A stretch of DNA of 64,000 bases from Escherichia coli (GTDB lineage Bacteria > Pseudomonadota > Gammaproteobacteria > Enterobacterales > Enterobacteriaceae). Positions 5,953 through 41,163 of the stretch are shown here, piece after piece. Under the pieces are notes generated by a model. That model searched no databases and was not told the DNA's origin. It worked only from the letters and a program-made list of their open reading frames with translations. The position numbers and the translations under genes were made by a program. Position 1 is the stretch's first letter. Each line of letters starts with the position of its first letter. The stretch lies in the NCBI RefSeq assembly GCF_016903815.1, contig NZ_CP069973.1. The stretch is one strand, 5' to 3'.

Positions 5953-7125
<1,173 letters not shown>

Positions 7126-9315
7126 TTAAGCCGTTTTCAGGTCGCCAACCGGACGGGCTGGCTCAACCGGGGGATAGTACGGTTCGTTATGACGCGCTTT
7201 ATTACGCAGACCTTCCGGCACTTCATACAGCGGGCCGAGGTGCTGATATTGCTGTGCCATATCGAGGTATTTTGCGCTACCGAGGGTGTCCAGCCAGCGG
7301 AACGCACCGCCGTGGAACGGAGGGAAGCCCAGGCCGTAGACCAGCGCCATATCCGCTTCTGCCGGAGTGGCGATAATGCCTTCTTCCAGACAGCGGACCA
7401 CTTCGTTGACCATCGGGATCATCATGCGGGCGATAATCTCTTCTTCGCTGAAATCGCGCTTCGGCTGGCTCACTTCTGCCAGCAGGTCGTCAACGACGGC
7501 GTCTTCTTCTTTCTTCGGCTTACCTTTGCTGTCTTCTTTATAACGCCAGAAACCGAGGCCGTTCTTCTGACCAAAGCGGTTGGCATCAAACAGCGCGTCG
7601 ATGGTATCGCGATAATCTTTCTGCATCCGCTGCGGGAAGCCTGCTGCCATGACAGCCTGGGCATGATGCGCGGTGTCAATGCCCACAACGTCCAGCAGAT
7701 ATGCCGGACCCATAGGCCAGCCAAACTGTTTTTCCATCACTTTGTCGATCTTGCGGAAATCCGCGCCGTCGCGCAGCAGCTGGCTGAAACCCGCGAAGTA
7801 GGGGAACAGCACGCGGTTAACGAAGAATCCGGGGCAGTCGTTAACCACAATCGGCGTTTTGCCCATCTTGCTCGCCCAGGCGACGACTTTCGCGATGGTT
7901 TCGTCGGAGCTTTTCTCGCCGCGAATAATTTCCACCAACGGCATCCGGTGCACCGGGTTAAAGAAGTGCATCCCGCAGAAGTTTTCCGGACGTTCCAGCG
8001 CGTTGGCCAGTTCGCTGATAGGAATGGTTGAAGTGTTAGACGCCAGCACGGTATCCGGGCGTACTTTCTGCTCGGTTTCTGCCAGTACGGCTTTTTTCAC
8101 TTTCGGGTTTTCGACAACCGCTTCTACCACAACATCCACGCGGTCAAAACCAGAGTAATCGAGCGTTGGGTGGATTGTGGAGATCACGCCAGCCAGTTTC
8201 AGACCATCGATCTTGCCGCGCTCAAGCTGCTTGTTCAGCAGTTTCGCGGCTTCGGTCATGCCGAGGGTTAACGACTTGTCGTTGATATCTTTCATGACAA
8301 CCGGTACGCCTTTCCACGCAGACTGGTAAGCGATGCCGCCACCCATAATGCCTGCGCCCAGCACAGCGGCCTGTTTCGGGGTTTCAACGTCTTTGGTGAG
8401 TTTCTTCGCTTTGCCTTTTACATATTGATCGTTAAGGAAAATGCCGACCAGTGCGCGGGCTTCGTTGGTGTGCGCCAGCGGGACAAAGCTTTTGTTTTCC
8501 AGATTTAATGCTTCTTCACGACCAAAACGGGCCGCCGCTTCAATGGTTTTTACTGCGGTGATGGGGGCCGGATAATGTTTCCCCGCCGTTTGTGCGACCA
8601 TCCCTTTAGCGATGGTGAAGCTCATGGTGGCTTCAATCTTGCTCAGTTTTAGCGGTTCCAGCTTCGGCTGACGTTTCGCTTTCCAGTCGAGGTCGCCGTT
8701 AATGGCCTGGCGTAAAATCGCCATCGCCCCTTCAACCAGTTTTTCTGCTTTGACTACACCATCCACCAGACCGATTTTCAGCGCCTGATCCGCGCCGACA
8801 TCTTTACCGGCGGCAATGATTTCCAGCGCACTGTCAGCGCCCAGCATACGTGGCATACGTACAGAACCGCCAAAGCCCGGCATGATGCCCAGTTTGGTTT
8901 CCGGCAGACCGATGCGCAGATCCGGCGTCGCCAGACGATAATCGGTCGCCAGCACGCATTCGCAGCCACCGCCCAGCGCATAGCCGTTGACGGCAGCAAT
9001 GGTCGGCACCGGGAGATCTTCCAGGCGATTAAACACGCTATTGGCAAAGTGCAGCCACTGACTTAACTGTTCTTCAGGAACGAGGAACAGGGACAAAAAT
9101 TCGGTGATATCAGCACCGACGATAAAGGCTGATTTGTTCGAACGTAGCAGCAGCCCTTTTAGATCTGATTGCTGTTCCAGCACGCCGATGGCCTCGCCGA
9201 GGCTGGCGACGGTCGCAGTGTCGAGTTTATTAACTGAACCTGGGGCATCAAATACCAGTTCGGCAATGCCATCTTCCAGCCAGTCAAGGTACAGGGTGTC
9301 GCCTTTGTAAAGCAT
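7126..9315 (-). CDS. fadB: Fatty acid oxidation complex alpha subunit FadB (729 aa)
   Basis: Track ORF 7126..9441; the K-12 protein starts [23 protein letters not shown]..., which sets the start codon at 9313-9315. Confidence 0.95.
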
Positions 9316-9340
9316 GTCAGTCTCCTGAATCCGCAAGGTG

Positions 9341-9357
9341 ATCTGGTCGTACCAGAT
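9341..9357. promoter_or_regulatory. FadR operator palindrome (ATCTGGTCGTACCAGAT) in the fadBA promoter
   Basis: A perfect 17-bp palindrome about 25 bp upstream of the fadB start, matching the recalled FadR site of fadB. Confidence 0.7.
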
Positions 9358-9504
9358 GCATCGAAGTGTGTATTTTGTGTTAAAAATATGCAAATAAAAG
9401 ATTAAAGAAATGCCGATCTGATCACGCTCGGCAGAAATCACGCTCTGGATGAACGATGTGCTAAGATGCGGAGACTTAAGGTCAAAAAAACAGAAGGGTA
9501 AAAA

Positions 9505-10836
9505 ATGGAATCACTGGCCTCACTCTATAAAAATCATATAGCTACCTTACAAGAACGGACTCGCGATGCGCTGGCGCGCTTCAAGCTGGATGCGTTACTT
9601 ATTCACTCCGGCGAACTGTTCAACGTTTTTCTCGACGATCATCCCTATCCGTTTAAAGTGAATCCGCAATTCAAAGCGTGGGTGCCGGTAACTCAGGTGC
9701 CAAACTGCTGGCTGTTGGTGGATGGCGTGAACAAGCCGAAACTGTGGTTTTATCTGCCGGTTGATTACTGGCACAACGTCGAACCGCTGCCGACCTCCTT
9801 CTGGACTGAAGATGTAGAAGTGATCGCGCTGCCGAAAGCCGATGGCATTGGTAGCCTGCTGCCTGCTGCGCGCGGGAATATCGGTTATATCGGTCCGGTG
9901 CCGGAGCGTGCGCTGCAACTGGGTATTGAGGCCAGCAATATCAACCCGAAAGGGGTGATCGACTACCTGCATTACTACCGCTCCTTCAAAACCGAGTACG
10001 AACTGGCCTGTATGCGTGAAGCGCAGAAAATGGCGGTCAACGGTCATCGCGCGGCAGAAGAAGCGTTCCGTTCTGGCATGAGCGAGTTCGATATCAATAT
10101 TGCCTATCTGACCGCGACCGGTCATCGTGATACCGACGTACCTTACAGCAACATTGTGGCGCTTAACGAACACGCTGCGGTGTTGCATTACACCAAACTG
10201 GACCACCAGGCACCGGAAGAGATGCGCAGCTTCCTGCTGGATGCCGGGGCCGAATATAACGGCTATGCGGCTGACCTGACCCGTACCTGGTCGGCAAAAA
10301 GCGATAACGACTACGCACAGCTGGTGAAAGACGTAAATGATGAACAACTGGCGCTGATCGCCACCATGAAAGCAGGCGTCAGCTATGTGGATTACCACAT
10401 CCAGTTCCATCAGCGCATCGCCAAACTGCTGCGTAAACATCAAATCATCACCGATATGAGTGAAGAAGCGATGGTCGAAAACGATCTCACCGGACCGTTT
10501 ATGCCGCACGGTATCGGCCATCCGCTGGGCCTGCAGGTGCATGACGTAGCCGGTTTTATGCAGGATGATAGCGGTACGCACCTCGCGGCACCGGCAAAAT
10601 ATCCGTACCTGCGCTGCACCCGTATTCTCCAGCCGGGCATGGTGTTAACCATCGAGCCGGGTATCTACTTCATCGAATCGCTACTGGCACCGTGGCGTGA
10701 AGGGCAGTTCAGTAAACACTTTAACTGGCAGAAAATTGAAGCACTGAAACCGTTCGGCGGCATTCGTATCGAAGACAACGTGGTGATCCACGAAAACAAC
10801 GTGGAAAACATGACCCGGGATCTGAAACTGGCGTGA
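9505..10836 (+). CDS. pepQ: Xaa-Pro dipeptidase PepQ (443 aa)
   Basis: Translation [37 protein letters not shown]... matches PepQ. Confidence 0.95.
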
Positions 10837-12951: not shown

Positions 12952-13497
12952 GTGAAAACATTAATTCTTTTCTCAACAAGGGACGGACAAACGCGCGAGA
13001 TTGCCTCCTACCTGGCTTCGGAACTGAAAGAACTGGGGATCCAGGCGGATGTCGCCAATGTGCACCGCATTGAAGAACCACAGTGGGAAAACTACGACCG
13101 TGTGGTCATTGGTGCTTCTATTCGCTATGGTCACTACCACTCTGCGTTCCAGGAATTTGTCAAAAAGCATGCGACGCGGCTGAATTCGATGCCGAGCGCC
13201 TTTTACTCCGTAAACCTGGTGGCGCGTAAACCTGAGAAGCGTACTCCACAGACCAACAGCTACGCGCGGAAGTTTCTGATGAGTTCACAATGGCGTCCCG
13301 ATCGCTGCGCGGTCATTGCCGGGGCGCTGCGTTACCCACGTTATCGCTGGTATGACCGTTTTATGATCAAGTTAATTATGAAGATGTCAGGCGGTGAAAC
13401 GGATACGCGCAAAGAAGTTGTCTATACCGATTGGGAGCAGGTGGCGAATTTCGCCCGAGAAATCGCCCATTTAACCGACAAACCGACGCTGAAATAA
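12952..13497 (+). CDS. hemG: Protoporphyrinogen oxidase HemG (181 aa, GTG start)
   Basis: Translation [34 protein letters not shown]... is flavodoxin-like and matches HemG. Confidence 0.95.
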
Positions 13498-13874: not shown

Positions 13875-15416
<1,542 letters not shown>

Positions 15417-15484
15417 CCTTAAAGAACTGTGCTTTGCAGTGCTCACACAGATTGTCTGATGAAAATGAGCAGTAAAACCTCTAC

Positions 15485-15561
<77 letters not shown>

Positions 15562-15603
15562 AATTTGCACCGCAAATTTGAAGAGGTTTTAACTACATGT
15601 TAT

Positions 15604-15679
15604 GGGGCTATAGCTCAGCTGGGAGAGCGCCTGCTTTGCACGCAGGAGGTCTGCGGTTCGATCCCGCATAGCTCCACCA
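15604..15679 (+). tRNA. alaT: tRNA-Ala (anticodon TGC) in the 16S-23S spacer
   Basis: GGGGCTATAGCTCAGCTGGGAGAGCGCCTGCTTTGCACGCAGGAGGTCTGCGGTTCGATCCCGCATAGCTCCACCA. Confidence 0.97.
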
Positions 15680-15862
15680 TCTCTGTAGTGATTAAATAAA
15701 AAATACTTCAGAGTGTACCTGCAAAGGTTCACTGCGAAGTTTTGCTCTTTAAAAATCTGGATCAAGCTGAAAATTGAAACACTGAACAATGAAAGTTGTT
15801 CGTGAGTCTCTCAAATTTTCGCAACACGATGATGAATCGAAAGAAACATCTTCGGGTTGTGA

Positions 15863-18767
<2,905 letters not shown>

Positions 18768-18859
18768 ACAACGCCGAAGGTGTTTTGGCGGATGAGAGAA
18801 GATTTTCAGCCTGATACAGATTAAATCAGAACGCAGAAGCGGTCTGATGAAACAGAATT

Positions 18860-18979
18860 TGCCTGGCGGCCTTAGCGCGGTGGTCCCACCTGACCCCATG
18901 CCGAACTCAGAAGTGAAACGCCGTAGCGCCGATGGTAGTGTGGGGTCTCCCCATGCGAGAGTAGGGAACTGCCAGGCAT
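18860..18979 (+). rRNA. rrfA: 5S ribosomal RNA, 120 nt
   Basis: TGCCTGGCGGC...GGGAACTGCCAGGCAT, the canonical E. coli 5S ends. Confidence 0.95.
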
Positions 18980-23027: not shown

Positions 23028-23654
23028 ATGAAAAAGATTTGGCTGGCGCTGGCTGGTTTAGTTTTAGCGTTTAGCGCATCGGCGGCGCAGTATGAAGATG
23101 GTAAACAGTATACTACCCTGGAAAAACCGGTAGCTGGCGCGCCGCAAGTGCTGGAGTTTTTCTCTTTCTTCTGCCCGCACTGCTATCAGTTTGAAGAAGT
23201 TCTGCATATTTCTGATAACGTGAAGAAAAAACTGCCGGAAGGCGTGAAGATGACTAAATACCACGTCAACTTCATGGGTGGTGACCTGGGCAAAGATTTG
23301 ACTCAGGCATGGGCAGTGGCGATGGCACTGGGCGTGGAAGACAAAGTCACTGTTCCGCTGTTTGAAGGCGTACAGAAAACCCAGACCATTCGTTCAGCAT
23401 CTGATATCCGCGATGTATTTATCAACGCAGGTATTAAAGGTGAAGAGTACGACGCGGCGTGGAACAGCTTCGTGGTGAAATCCCTGGTCGCTCAGCAGGA
23501 AAAAGCTGCAGCTGACGTGCAATTGCGTGGCGTTCCGGCGATGTTTGTTAACGGTAAATATCAGCTGAATCCGCAGGGTATGGATACCAGCAATATGGAT
23601 GTTTTTGTTCAGCAGTATGCTGATACTGTGAAATATCTGTCCGAGAAAAAATAA
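23028..23654 (+). CDS. dsbA: Periplasmic thiol:disulfide oxidoreductase DsbA (208 aa)
   Basis: Translation [19 protein letters not shown]... with the CPHC active site ([15 protein letters not shown]). Confidence 0.96.
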
Positions 23655-23671
23655 CTCAATGTAAATTACAT

Positions 23672-23700
23672 AAAGCCCGTGAATATTCACGGGCTTTTTT
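23672..23700 (+). terminator. dsbA rho-independent terminator (aaagcccgtgaatattcacgggctttttt)
   Basis: Stem gcccgtg/cacgggc followed by six T; the IS200-like copy A begins immediately after the T-run. Confidence 0.8.
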
Positions 23701-24413
23701 GTGCACAGAAAACCCCCAGCTAGGCTGGGGGTTCCGGAAAGCTTTCAGCTTTAAGCCAGTTATTAAAACCCCTTTTGATTTGTTAAAACACCTTGCGGTC
23801 TGGCAACTGCAAGTGTCAAACAAGAAATCAAAAGGGGGTCCCAATGGGGAACGAAAAGAGCTTAGCGCACACCCGATGGAACTGTAAATATCACATAGTT
23901 TTTGCGCCAAAATACCGAAGACAGGTGTTCTACAGAGAGAAGCGTAGAGCAATAGGCAGTATTTTGAGAAAGCTGTGTGAGTGGAAAAGTGTACGGATTC
24001 TGGAAGCTGAATGCTGTGCAGATCATATCCATATGCTTGTGGAGATCCCGCCCAAAATGAGCGTATCCGGCTTTATGGGATATCTGAAAGGGAAAAGCAG
24101 TCTGATGCTTTACGAGCAGTTTGGTGATTTGAAATTCAAATACAGGAACAGGGAGTTCTGGTGCAGAGGGTACTACGTCGATACGGTGGGTAAGAACACG
24201 GCGAAGATACAGGATTACATAAAGCACCAGCTTGAAGAGGATAAAATGGGAGAGCAGTTATCGATTCCCTATCCGGGCAGCCCGTTTACGGGCCGTAAGT
24301 AACGAAGTTGGATGCAAATGTCAGATCGTGTGCGCCTGTTAGGGCGCGGCTGGTAAGAGAGCCTTATAGGCGCATTTGAAAAACCTCCGGCTATGCCGGA
24401 GGATATTTATTTA
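23701..24413 (+). mobile_element. IS200-like element (IS200/IS605 family), copy A, about 0.71 kb
   Basis: Bounded by sequence identity to copy B (40452..41163). Left-end hairpin cccccagc-tag-gctggggg, a second structured region sequestering the tnpA RBS, and a right-end hairpin cctccggc-tat-gccggagg. The left boundary is uncertain by a few nt inside the T-run. Confidence 0.85.
23844..24302 (+). CDS. tnpA: IS200-type HUH (Y1) transposase TnpA (152 aa)
   Basis: Translation MGNEKSLAHTRWNCKYHIVFAPKYRRQVFYREKRRAIGSILRKLCEWKSVRILEAECCADHIHMLVEIPPKMSVSGFMGYLKG... with the HxH (HIHML) motif; closely matches recalled IS200/IS1541 TnpA. Confidence 0.9.
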   Translation: MGNEKSLAHTRWNCKYHIVFAPKYRRQVFYREKRRAIGSILRKLCEWKSVRILEAECCADHIHMLVEIPPKMSVSGFMGYLKGKSSLMLYEQFGDLKFKYRNREFWCRGYYVDTVGKNTAKIQDYIKHQLEEDKMGEQLSIPYPGSPFTGRK

Positions 24414-30073: not shown

Positions 30074-30220
30074 GATTCGCCTGAACATGCCCTTTTTTCG
30101 TAAGTAAGCAACATAAGCTGTCACGTTTTGTGATGGCTATTAGAAATTCCTATGCAACAACTGAAAAAAAATTACAAAAAGTGCTTTCTGAACTGAACAA
30201 AAAAGAGTAAAGTTAGTCGC

Positions 30221-30329
30221 GTAGGGTACAGAGGTAAGATGTTCTATCTTTCAGACCTTTTACTTCACGTAATCGGATTTGGCTGAATATTTTAGCCGCC
30301 CCAGTCAGTAATGACTGGGGCGTTTTTTA
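30221..30329 (+). ncRNA. spf: Spot 42 small RNA (spf), 109 nt
   Basis: GTAGGGTACAGAGGTAAGATGTTCTATCTTTCAGACCTTTTACTTCACGTAATCGGATTTGGCTGAATATTTTAGCCGCCCCAGTCAGTAATGACTGGGGCGTTTTTTA matches recalled Spot 42, including its terminator. Confidence 0.88.
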
Positions 30330-31357: not shown

Positions 31358-31600
31358 ATAGAGCGAGGACGCTAACAGGAACAATGACTCAGGATGAGGG
31401 TCAGGAGCGCCAGGAGGCGAAGACAGAGGATTGTCAGGAAGACAAACGTCCGGAGACGTAATTAAACGGAAATGGAATCAACACGGATTGTTCCGGCTAA
31501 TGGAAAAACAGGGTGTGTTGGCGGCCTGCAAGGATTGTAAGACCCGTTAAGGGTTATGAGTCAGGAAAAAAGGCGACAGAGTAATCTGTCGCCTTTTTTC
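31358..31600 (+). ncRNA. csrC: CsrC small RNA (CsrA-sequestering)
   Basis: It lies in the engB-yihI intergenic region where csrC maps in K-12, has at least a dozen GGA-containing motifs (AGGAC, CAGGAAC, CAGGATG, CAGGAGC, CAGGAGG, GAGGATT, CAGGAAG ...) and ends in the terminator aaggcgacagagtaatctgtcgccttttttc. The 5' end is approximate. Confidence 0.65.
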
Positions 31601-31668
31601 TTTGCTTGCTTTCTGTTAGATTCCGCCGCAAATCTATACTGAATAAAACGGCTAAAAGACGAACCATT

Positions 31669-38344: not shown

Positions 38345-38430
38345 TCGTGCAAAAGGGCTGCACCATGATGTGAATGTTGCACCAATATAGTGCTTCAATG
38401 GAAACATTAAGCACCATATTGGTGCAATGA
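38345..38430. promoter_or_regulatory. NtrC enhancer sites upstream of glnA (TGCACCA-N-TGGTGCA palindromes)
   Basis: Near-perfect palindrome gcaccatattggtgc at 38411-38425 plus related half-sites tgcaccaatatagtgc and tgcaccatgatg upstream. Confidence 0.75.
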
Positions 38431-38577
38431 CCTTTGGATAACCCTTTTTATGCTCCGTGAAAGCAATCACAAAGGGACTCTGCAATACTTGTTTGCGGAG
38501 GATGTTTGTGATCCTGTTTTGTAGTGCGATTAATCCGTGTACAATAACGCGCTATTTCTAATGCCTGAGGCAAAGTT

Positions 38578-40424: not shown

Positions 40425-40451
40425 CCTGCCATCGCTGGCAGGTTTTTTTTT
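40425..40451 (+). terminator. typA rho-independent terminator (cctgccatcgctggcagg plus nine T)
   Basis: Stem cctgcca/tggcagg followed by a T-run; the IS200-like copy B begins immediately after. Confidence 0.8.
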
Positions 40452-41163
40452 GTGCACAGAAAACCCCCAGCTAGGCTGGGGGTTCCGGAAAGCTTTCAGC
40501 TTTGAGCCAGTTATTAAAACCCCTTTTGATTTGTTAAAACACCTTGCGGTCTGGCAACTGCAAGTGTCAAACAAGAAATCAAAAGGGGGTCCCAATGGGG
40601 AACGAAAAGAGCTTAGCGCACACCCGATGGAACTGTAAATATCACATAGTTTTTGCGCCAAAATACCGAAGACAGGTGTTCTACAGAGAGAAGCGTAGAG
40701 CAATAGGCAGTATTTTGAGAAAGCTGTGTGAGTGGAAAAGCGTACGGATTCTGGAAGCTGAATGCTGTGCAGATCATATCCATATGCTTGTGGAGATCCC
40801 GCCCAAAATGAGCGTATCCGGGTTTATGGGATATCTGAAAGGGAAAAGCAGTCTGATGCTTTACGAGCAGTTTGGTGATTTGAAATTCAAATACAGGAAC
40901 AGGGAGTTCTGGTGCAGAGGGTACTACGTCGATACAGTGGGTAAGAACACGGCGAAGATACAGGATTACATAAAGCACCAGCTTGAAGAGGATAAAATGG
41001 GAGAGCAGTTATCGATTCCCTATCCGGGCAGCCCGTTTACGGGCCGTAAGTAACGAAGTTGGATGCAAATGTCAGATCGTGTGCGCCTGTTAGGGCGCGG
41101 CTGGTAAGAGAGCCTTATAGGCGCATTTGAAAAACCTCCGGCTATGCCGGAGGATATTTATTA
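40452..41163 (+). mobile_element. IS200-like element, copy B, same orientation as copy A
   Basis: Near-identical to 23701..24413 (only a few substitutions seen); the same terminal hairpins are present. Confidence 0.85.
40595..41053 (+). CDS. tnpA: IS200-type HUH (Y1) transposase TnpA (152 aa)
   Basis: Track ORF 40544..41053; the internal ATG gives MGNEKSLAHTRWNCKYHIVF..., with an amino-acid sequence identical to copy A. Confidence 0.9.
   Translation: MGNEKSLAHTRWNCKYHIVFAPKYRRQVFYREKRRAIGSILRKLCEWKSVRILEAECCADHIHMLVEIPPKMSVSGFMGYLKGKSSLMLYEQFGDLKFKYRNREFWCRGYYVDTVGKNTAKIQDYIKHQLEEDKMGEQLSIPYPGSPFTGRK

Follow-up and report, generated by a model that had tools for sequence, protein, structure and literature searches.

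A sequence identical to the K-12 FadR operator lies at the fadBA promoter in a 64-kb window of a non-K-12 Escherichia coli strain

The promoter of fadBA, the fatty-acid beta-oxidation operon of Escherichia coli, carries a thoroughly studied FadR-binding site. The sequence ATCTGGTACGACCAGAT serves as the 17-bp FadR-binding operator "fadO" (PMC7372789), and FadR was co-crystallised with the FadB operator in the form of the 19-mer CATCTGGTACGACCAGATC (PDB 1H9T), a structure in which base-specific contacts are made mainly through the TGG of each half-site (PMC3592433). In EMSA, wild-type FadR binds the probe ACTTCGACTCATCTGGTACGACCAGATCACCTTGCGG and the W60G mutant does not (PMC4259882), and expression of fadBA-lacZ rises about 3- to 10-fold in fadR mutants (PMC3460868, PMC4259882). 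FadR at its fadBA site, which overlaps with the start of transcription, denies RNA polymerase access, and long-chain acyl-CoA of C14 or longer frees FadR from DNA (reviewed in PMC9329746). The operon is also under ArcA, FIS, Cpx/CpxQ and, indirectly, CRP (PMC3460868, among others).

We analyzed a stretch of 64,000 nucleotides from E. coli (contig NZ_CP069973.1), hereafter the window, whose features are collected in Table 1. A preliminary description made from the sequence alone had reported a 17-bp perfect palindrome of FadR type at positions 9341-9357, placed it 25 bp upstream of the fadB start and rated it an ordinary, expected feature. Direct reading of the window bears out the sequence, which is ATCTGGTCGTACCAGAT on the plus strand and ATCTGGTACGACCAGAT on the minus, fadB-sense strand. 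The two 7-bp arms, ATCTGGT and ACCAGAT, are perfectly complementary and to that extent the word "perfect" stands, but it does not extend to the central 3 bp, which are asymmetric (CGT on the plus strand, ACG on the minus strand); ATCTGGTCGTACCAGAT agrees with its own reverse complement at 14 of 17 positions. The distance was given correctly, with exactly 25 nt (9316-9340) separating the operator from the A of the fadB ATG at 9315.

Table 1. Coordinates of the operator, the surrounding promoter elements, other features of the window and arm-bearing loci in Rhizobiales.
Feature	Position	Strand	Basis or remark
FadR operator of the fadBA promoter (+1 to +17)	9341..9357	-	K-12 identity; published operator, crystal DNA and EMSA probe; published numbering
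Inferred fadBA transcription start (+1), first A of the operator	9357	-	Derived from published numbering
-10-like hexamer CACACT (-13 to -8)	9365..9370	-	Sequence and numbering; CACA(C/A)T in the 37-species alignment
TTGCATATTTTTAACACAA, published putative FIS site, with -35-like TTGCAT/TTTGCA and conserved TTAACA	9375..9393	-	PMC3460868; alignment
-35-like hexamer TTGCAT	9388-9393	-	Numbering from PMC3460868
Remainder of the 42-nt fadBA 5'UTR	9316..9340	-	Sequence
Shine-Dalgarno AGGAG	9322-9326	-	Sequence; conserved in the alignment
fadB, 729 aa, first gene of the regulated operon	7126..9315	-	ORF, translation, RefSeq annotation of identical genomes
fadA, 387 aa, second gene of the operon	5953..7116	-	ORF; directly downstream of fadB in K-12
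pepQ (Xaa-Pro dipeptidase), divergent neighbour	9505..10836	+	ORF, translation, annotation
rRNA operon (16S, tRNA-Ile-GAT, tRNA-Ala-TGC, StyR-44 match, 23S, 5S)	13875-18977		
IS200-like element, two copies of ~716 bp	23696-24411 and 40447-41162		
sRNAs Spot 42, CsrC and ES222	30211-30329; 31358-31611; 38389-38496		
Operator arms in Rhizobiales locus L016 (coordinates of that locus)	2930-2946 and 7841-7857		Between SBP_bac_5 and M24 peptidase genes; between TetR-family and SBP_bac_1 genes
Further arm-bearing loci: L004, L005, L015, L023, L029, L032, L046-L048, L070, L077, L091, L092, L100, L101, L106, L117			

Alignment to K-12 MG1655 (NC_000913.3; fadB at 4028782-4030971, pepQ from 4031161), the check that had been proposed, gave 17/17 identity at the orthologous position between fadB and pepQ, so the different K-12 sequence that would have spoken against the site was not encountered. 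The spacing between operator and fadB ATG is likewise equal in both, at 25 nt. The complete crystal 19-mer CATCTGGTACGACCAGATC occurs in the window and, together with the fadBA EMSA probe, encompasses the operator 17-mer; the site is thus identical at every position to the K-12 sequence that was crystallised and shifted by FadR. The earlier statement that FadR represses fadBA through such an operator is supported: the published operator, the crystal DNA and the probe all contain this same sequence. Over the entire 189-nt intergenic region we found three single-base differences from K-12, none of them inside the operator. Two lie at 9359-9360 (-2/-3 relative to the inferred start), where the fadB-sense strand of the window has TG and K-12 has CT, 2-3 bases 5' of the operator edge, and the third at 9395 (-38), just upstream of the -35-like hexamer. 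The two flanking bases at -2 and -3 set the window apart from the published K-12 EMSA probe.

The place of the operator within the promoter was derived from published numbering. TTGCATATTTTTAACACAA has been described as a putative FIS site spanning -36 to -18 of the fadBA promoter (PMC3460868); the range is printed there as "-36 to 18", and the length of 19 nt fixes its meaning as -36 to -18. With TTGCATATTTTTAACACAA in that position, +1 falls on the first base of the operator on the fadB-sense strand, and the operator would cover +1 to +17, a location compatible with repression and in accord with the overlap described in PMC9329746. The -10-like hexamer CACACT ends 7 nt upstream of it. A scan of 9200-9620 for consensus sigma-70 promoters returned none, because the fadBA hexamers TTGCAT and CACACT are too weak for the threshold of the tool. 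The empty scan is no argument against a fadBA promoter, and weak hexamers fit the known dependence of the operon on ArcA, CRP (indirectly), FIS and Cpx. On the plus strand, the promoter blocks at 9375-9410 read TGTTA-N6-TGCAA-N6-GATTA with an 11-bp periodicity. This arrangement may resemble the direct-repeat architecture of ArcA-P boxes, ArcA being a reported repressor of fadBA.

Within E. coli the site is close to invariant. The first 24 kb of the window are 100% identical to several human clinical isolates, and a 389-bp stretch around the operator, with fadB and pepQ annotated, finds a match in 5,425 of 5,426 complete E. coli genomes. A 43-nt query, which begins one base ahead of the operator and runs through the 5'UTR up to the ATG, matched at ≥99% identity in 5,413 of the 5,426, a count in which some local matches may be end-trimmed. 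At the same identity the entire 189-nt intergenic region is found in only 2,352 complete genomes. A rare operator variant, GTCTGGTACGACCAGAT, with A replaced by G at position 1, is carried by E. coli SCU-125 (L124, NZ_CP051700.1 3104272-3104432); the variant base coincides with the inferred transcription start.

We also scanned other species with the pattern ATCTGGTNNGACCAGAT, taking one genome per species, and obtained at least 120 loci. Among the matches listed, 37 sites are located between fadB and pepQ orthologues, in about 23 genera of Enterobacterales, and the FadB proteins at these loci range from 98% down to 63% identity. The distance from the site to the fadB ATG is 24-28 nt, most often 26, at the 36 loci in which the start of fadB is included. 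Alignment of the 37 species revealed conserved flanking blocks TTTGCA, TTAACA, CACA(C/A)T and AGGAG, with TTTGCA and TTAACA near-invariant. As the set was picked by motif, conservation of the arms is given by construction, and the independent evidence is the fixed position together with the flanks. The remaining 83 of 120 loci among the matches listed have neither fadB nor pepQ nearby; we rejected them as evidence for FadR, a few hundred chance matches being expected for 15 fixed bases in 298 Gb.

The center of the operator follows a pattern of its own across these fadB-linked sites (a subset of loci L006-L122). In fadB sense, Enterobacteriaceae and Erwiniaceae have ACG or ATG there, whereas Yersiniaceae, Morganellaceae, Pectobacteriaceae and Hafniaceae have the reverse complement, CAT or CGT. 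All 37 recovered sites combine one GGTA half-site with one GGTC half-site, in an orientation that is inverted between families, and the symmetric consensus center C-N-G is absent from every one of the 37, although the search pattern allowed it. It seems to us quite improbable that this central asymmetry is functional rather than neutral, either by tuning FadR affinity or through a second role of the site as a 5'-terminal hairpin of fadBA mRNA.

How far the sequence itself identifies the site depends on what is counted. Perfect 7-3-7 inverted repeats are frequent in the window, with 13 found vs about 3.8 in mononucleotide shuffles, and 4 of the 13 belong to the two IS200-like copies; as a bare inverted repeat of this kind, the operator is not special. 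The 17-mer of K-12, on the other hand, is matched within 3 mismatches at one locus in the window where shuffles expect 0.08, and simple arithmetic puts an exact chance occurrence at about 128,000/4^17, or roughly 7e-6 per window. ATCTGGTACGACCAGAT conforms to the FadR-site consensus aaCTGGTCnGACC(T/A)Gtt, containing the TGG/CCA triplets of both half-sites as well as the CTGGT..GACC core; within the core it departs once, having A instead of C at position 8. When the seven FadR sites printed in PMC4259882 were made into a position matrix, the fadB operator ranked first in the window, only because the operator is itself part of that matrix. With a leave-one-out matrix of the six other sites it scored 9.4 bits vs a mean maximum of 14.1 in shuffled windows. 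We therefore rejected the motif score as evidence, since it falls under the best chance scores, and base the identification on orthology together with published experiments.

The bare core CTGGTNNGACC shows no enrichment in the window either (14 found vs 9.5 expected). A second perfect-core match, CTGGTATGACC at 13345-13361, was rejected as a site: it is located inside ORF 12952-13497, presumably hemG to judge by the order of genes in K-12, and its score is at chance level. This look-alike (CGCTGGTATGACCGTTT) reaches 12-13 bits with the matrix, within the chance range for 64 kb, and is most likely due to chance.

The arms of the operator also occur far from fadB. ATCTGGT-N3-ACCAGAT, with centers TCG, AGG, AAG and others, is found in orthologous intergenic regions of Mesorhizobium and Rhizobiaceae, in the neighbourhood of genes for ABC-transporter binding proteins, an M24 peptidase and a TetR-family gene (Table 1). 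The arms recur there far more often than we would expect from chance in that genus, and they are probably the operator of some other regulator. Some of the Mesorhizobium and Rhizobiaceae regions contain a second element, CTGGACCAG, about 30 nt upstream of the arms. The arms alone are not diagnostic of FadR outside Enterobacterales; for E. coli, with its known binder, this changes nothing.

Three other readings of the palindrome deserve consideration. One borrows from the Rhizobiales loci just described: identical arms recur there in orthologous intergenic regions, seemingly under a different regulator, and such a regulator might recognise them at the fadBA site as well. We consider this highly improbable, as the binder in E. 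coli is known to be FadR (PMC4259882, PMC3592433), fadR is core to the species and neither fadB nor pepQ is found near the Rhizobiales loci. Still harder to sustain is the notion of an inverted repeat that is due to chance or structure and takes no part in regulation, with fadBA in this strain run by ArcA, CRP (indirectly), FIS and Cpx/CpxQ. These regulators do act on fadBA, perfect 7-3-7 repeats are common in the window and the operator scores at chance level under the matrix of the other FadR sites; yet the other regulators supplement FadR control and do not replace it (PMC3460868), the sequence is exactly that of an operator bound in experiments and crystallised, and it is near-invariant across E. 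coli and fixed in place before fadB in about 23 genera. The absence of any role is thus extremely improbable, and already effectively refuted by published binding and genetics.

The remaining reading is that the palindrome acts, also or instead, as a 5'-terminal hairpin formed by +1 to +17 of fadBA mRNA, shielding the transcript from 5'-end-dependent decay. The isolated 17-mer RNA is predicted to form a 7-bp stem with a 3-nt loop (-6.8 kcal/mol), and the same hairpin appears in the predicted structure of a 45-nt RNA comprising the leader plus ATG. The fadB arms are moreover more perfectly symmetric than those of the other FadR sites listed in PMC4259882, but this symmetry is already explained by function at the DNA level. 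When the first 30 nt of coding sequence are included, the minimum-energy fold of the resulting 72-nt leader lacks the hairpin, and its stability is unremarkable (z = -1.33, with 21 of 200 shuffles folding as well). Since the arms do not vary in any of the sequences gathered, covariation cannot speak for a hairpin, and our literature search found no report of a hairpin role on fadBA mRNA. We regard such a role as unlikely.

What we favor instead is FadR control: positions 9341-9357 are almost certainly the single FadR operator of the E. coli fadBA promoter, through which FadR and acyl-CoA would control the operon in this strain. In the proposed sequence of events, a FadR dimer (GntR family, winged helix-turn-helix) would bind both inverted half-sites, reading chiefly the TGG/CCA triplets in each arm. 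Bound at +1 to +17, directly downstream of a weak -10 element, it would block RNA polymerase and keep fadBA off. After uptake and activation of long-chain fatty acids, acyl-CoA with a chain of at least C14 would bind the C-terminal domain of FadR, which would then leave the DNA and allow fadBA to be transcribed. Sequence identity, position and conservation come from the present analysis, and binding, repression and effector release from the literature; we infer that the same events take place in this non-K-12 strain. None of the observations contradicts this reading. The fadR gene does not lie within the 64-kb window. As 5,422 of 5,426 complete E. coli genomes carry it, and as the window is identical over 24 kb to several such genomes, the source genome very likely has it too.

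The rRNA operon, Spot 42, CsrC and ES222 are all expected E. coli chromosomal neighbours of fadBA. The divergent gene pepQ is not known to be under FadR control. The two IS200-like copies are about 99% identical and 16,751 bp apart, and each contains an Rfam STnc490 match (23711-23834 and 40462-40585). ORF 23793-24302 in the first copy matches Pfam Y1_Tnp, "Transposase IS200 like" (E = 5e-38). This copy directly follows dsbA (23028-23654), and K-12 is not known to have an IS200 at this place.

The value of the site is that of a sanity check, with one of the best-characterised bacterial operators found at the right place: the fadBA-pepQ region of the window is ordinary for E. coli, apparently with intact FadR control. 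The fadBA operator is an already known feature, as its rating in the preliminary description implied. What we would correct in that reading is the wording "perfect", the strand, for which the literature uses the fadB sense, and the grounds on which the site is identified, these being its orthology and the published experiments and not its motif score. An exact orthologue of a characterised site weighs far more than the score of a motif made from a handful of sites, and in other phyla identical arms are found in unrelated regulatory settings.

Compared with described systems, the closest is the K-12 fadBA operator itself (PDB 1H9T DNA), which has in common with the window the 17-mer, the flanking C...C of the 19-mer, the strand and the 25-nt spacing, as well as the -35, -10 and Shine-Dalgarno elements and the divergent pepQ. 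Only the three intergenic bases at -2, -3 and -38, all outside the operator, distinguish the two regions. A further comparison is with the fadB-linked sites of other Enterobacterales. Those in Citrobacter, Enterobacter, Klebsiella, Pantoea, Erwinia, Serratia, Yersinia, Photorhabdus, Hafnia and others have the same arms, the 24-28 nt spacing and the divergence of fadB and pepQ, along with the conserved promoter blocks. The other FadR sites of the fad/fab regulon, those of fadL, fadD, fabA and fabB, share the 17-bp layout and the CTGGT...GACC core with the fadB site. At fabA and fabB, FadR activates rather than represses. The repressing sites of the fad/fab regulon overlap the -10/+1 region, as the fadB site does. 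Unlike these other sites, whose right arm is ACCTGTT-like and which have C at position 8, the fadB site has fully symmetric 7-bp arms, with ACCAGAT on the right, and A at position 8, and these two properties account for its low score with the matrix of the six others. Finally, fadBA has one FadR site, whereas fadL and fadD have two each (PMC9329746).
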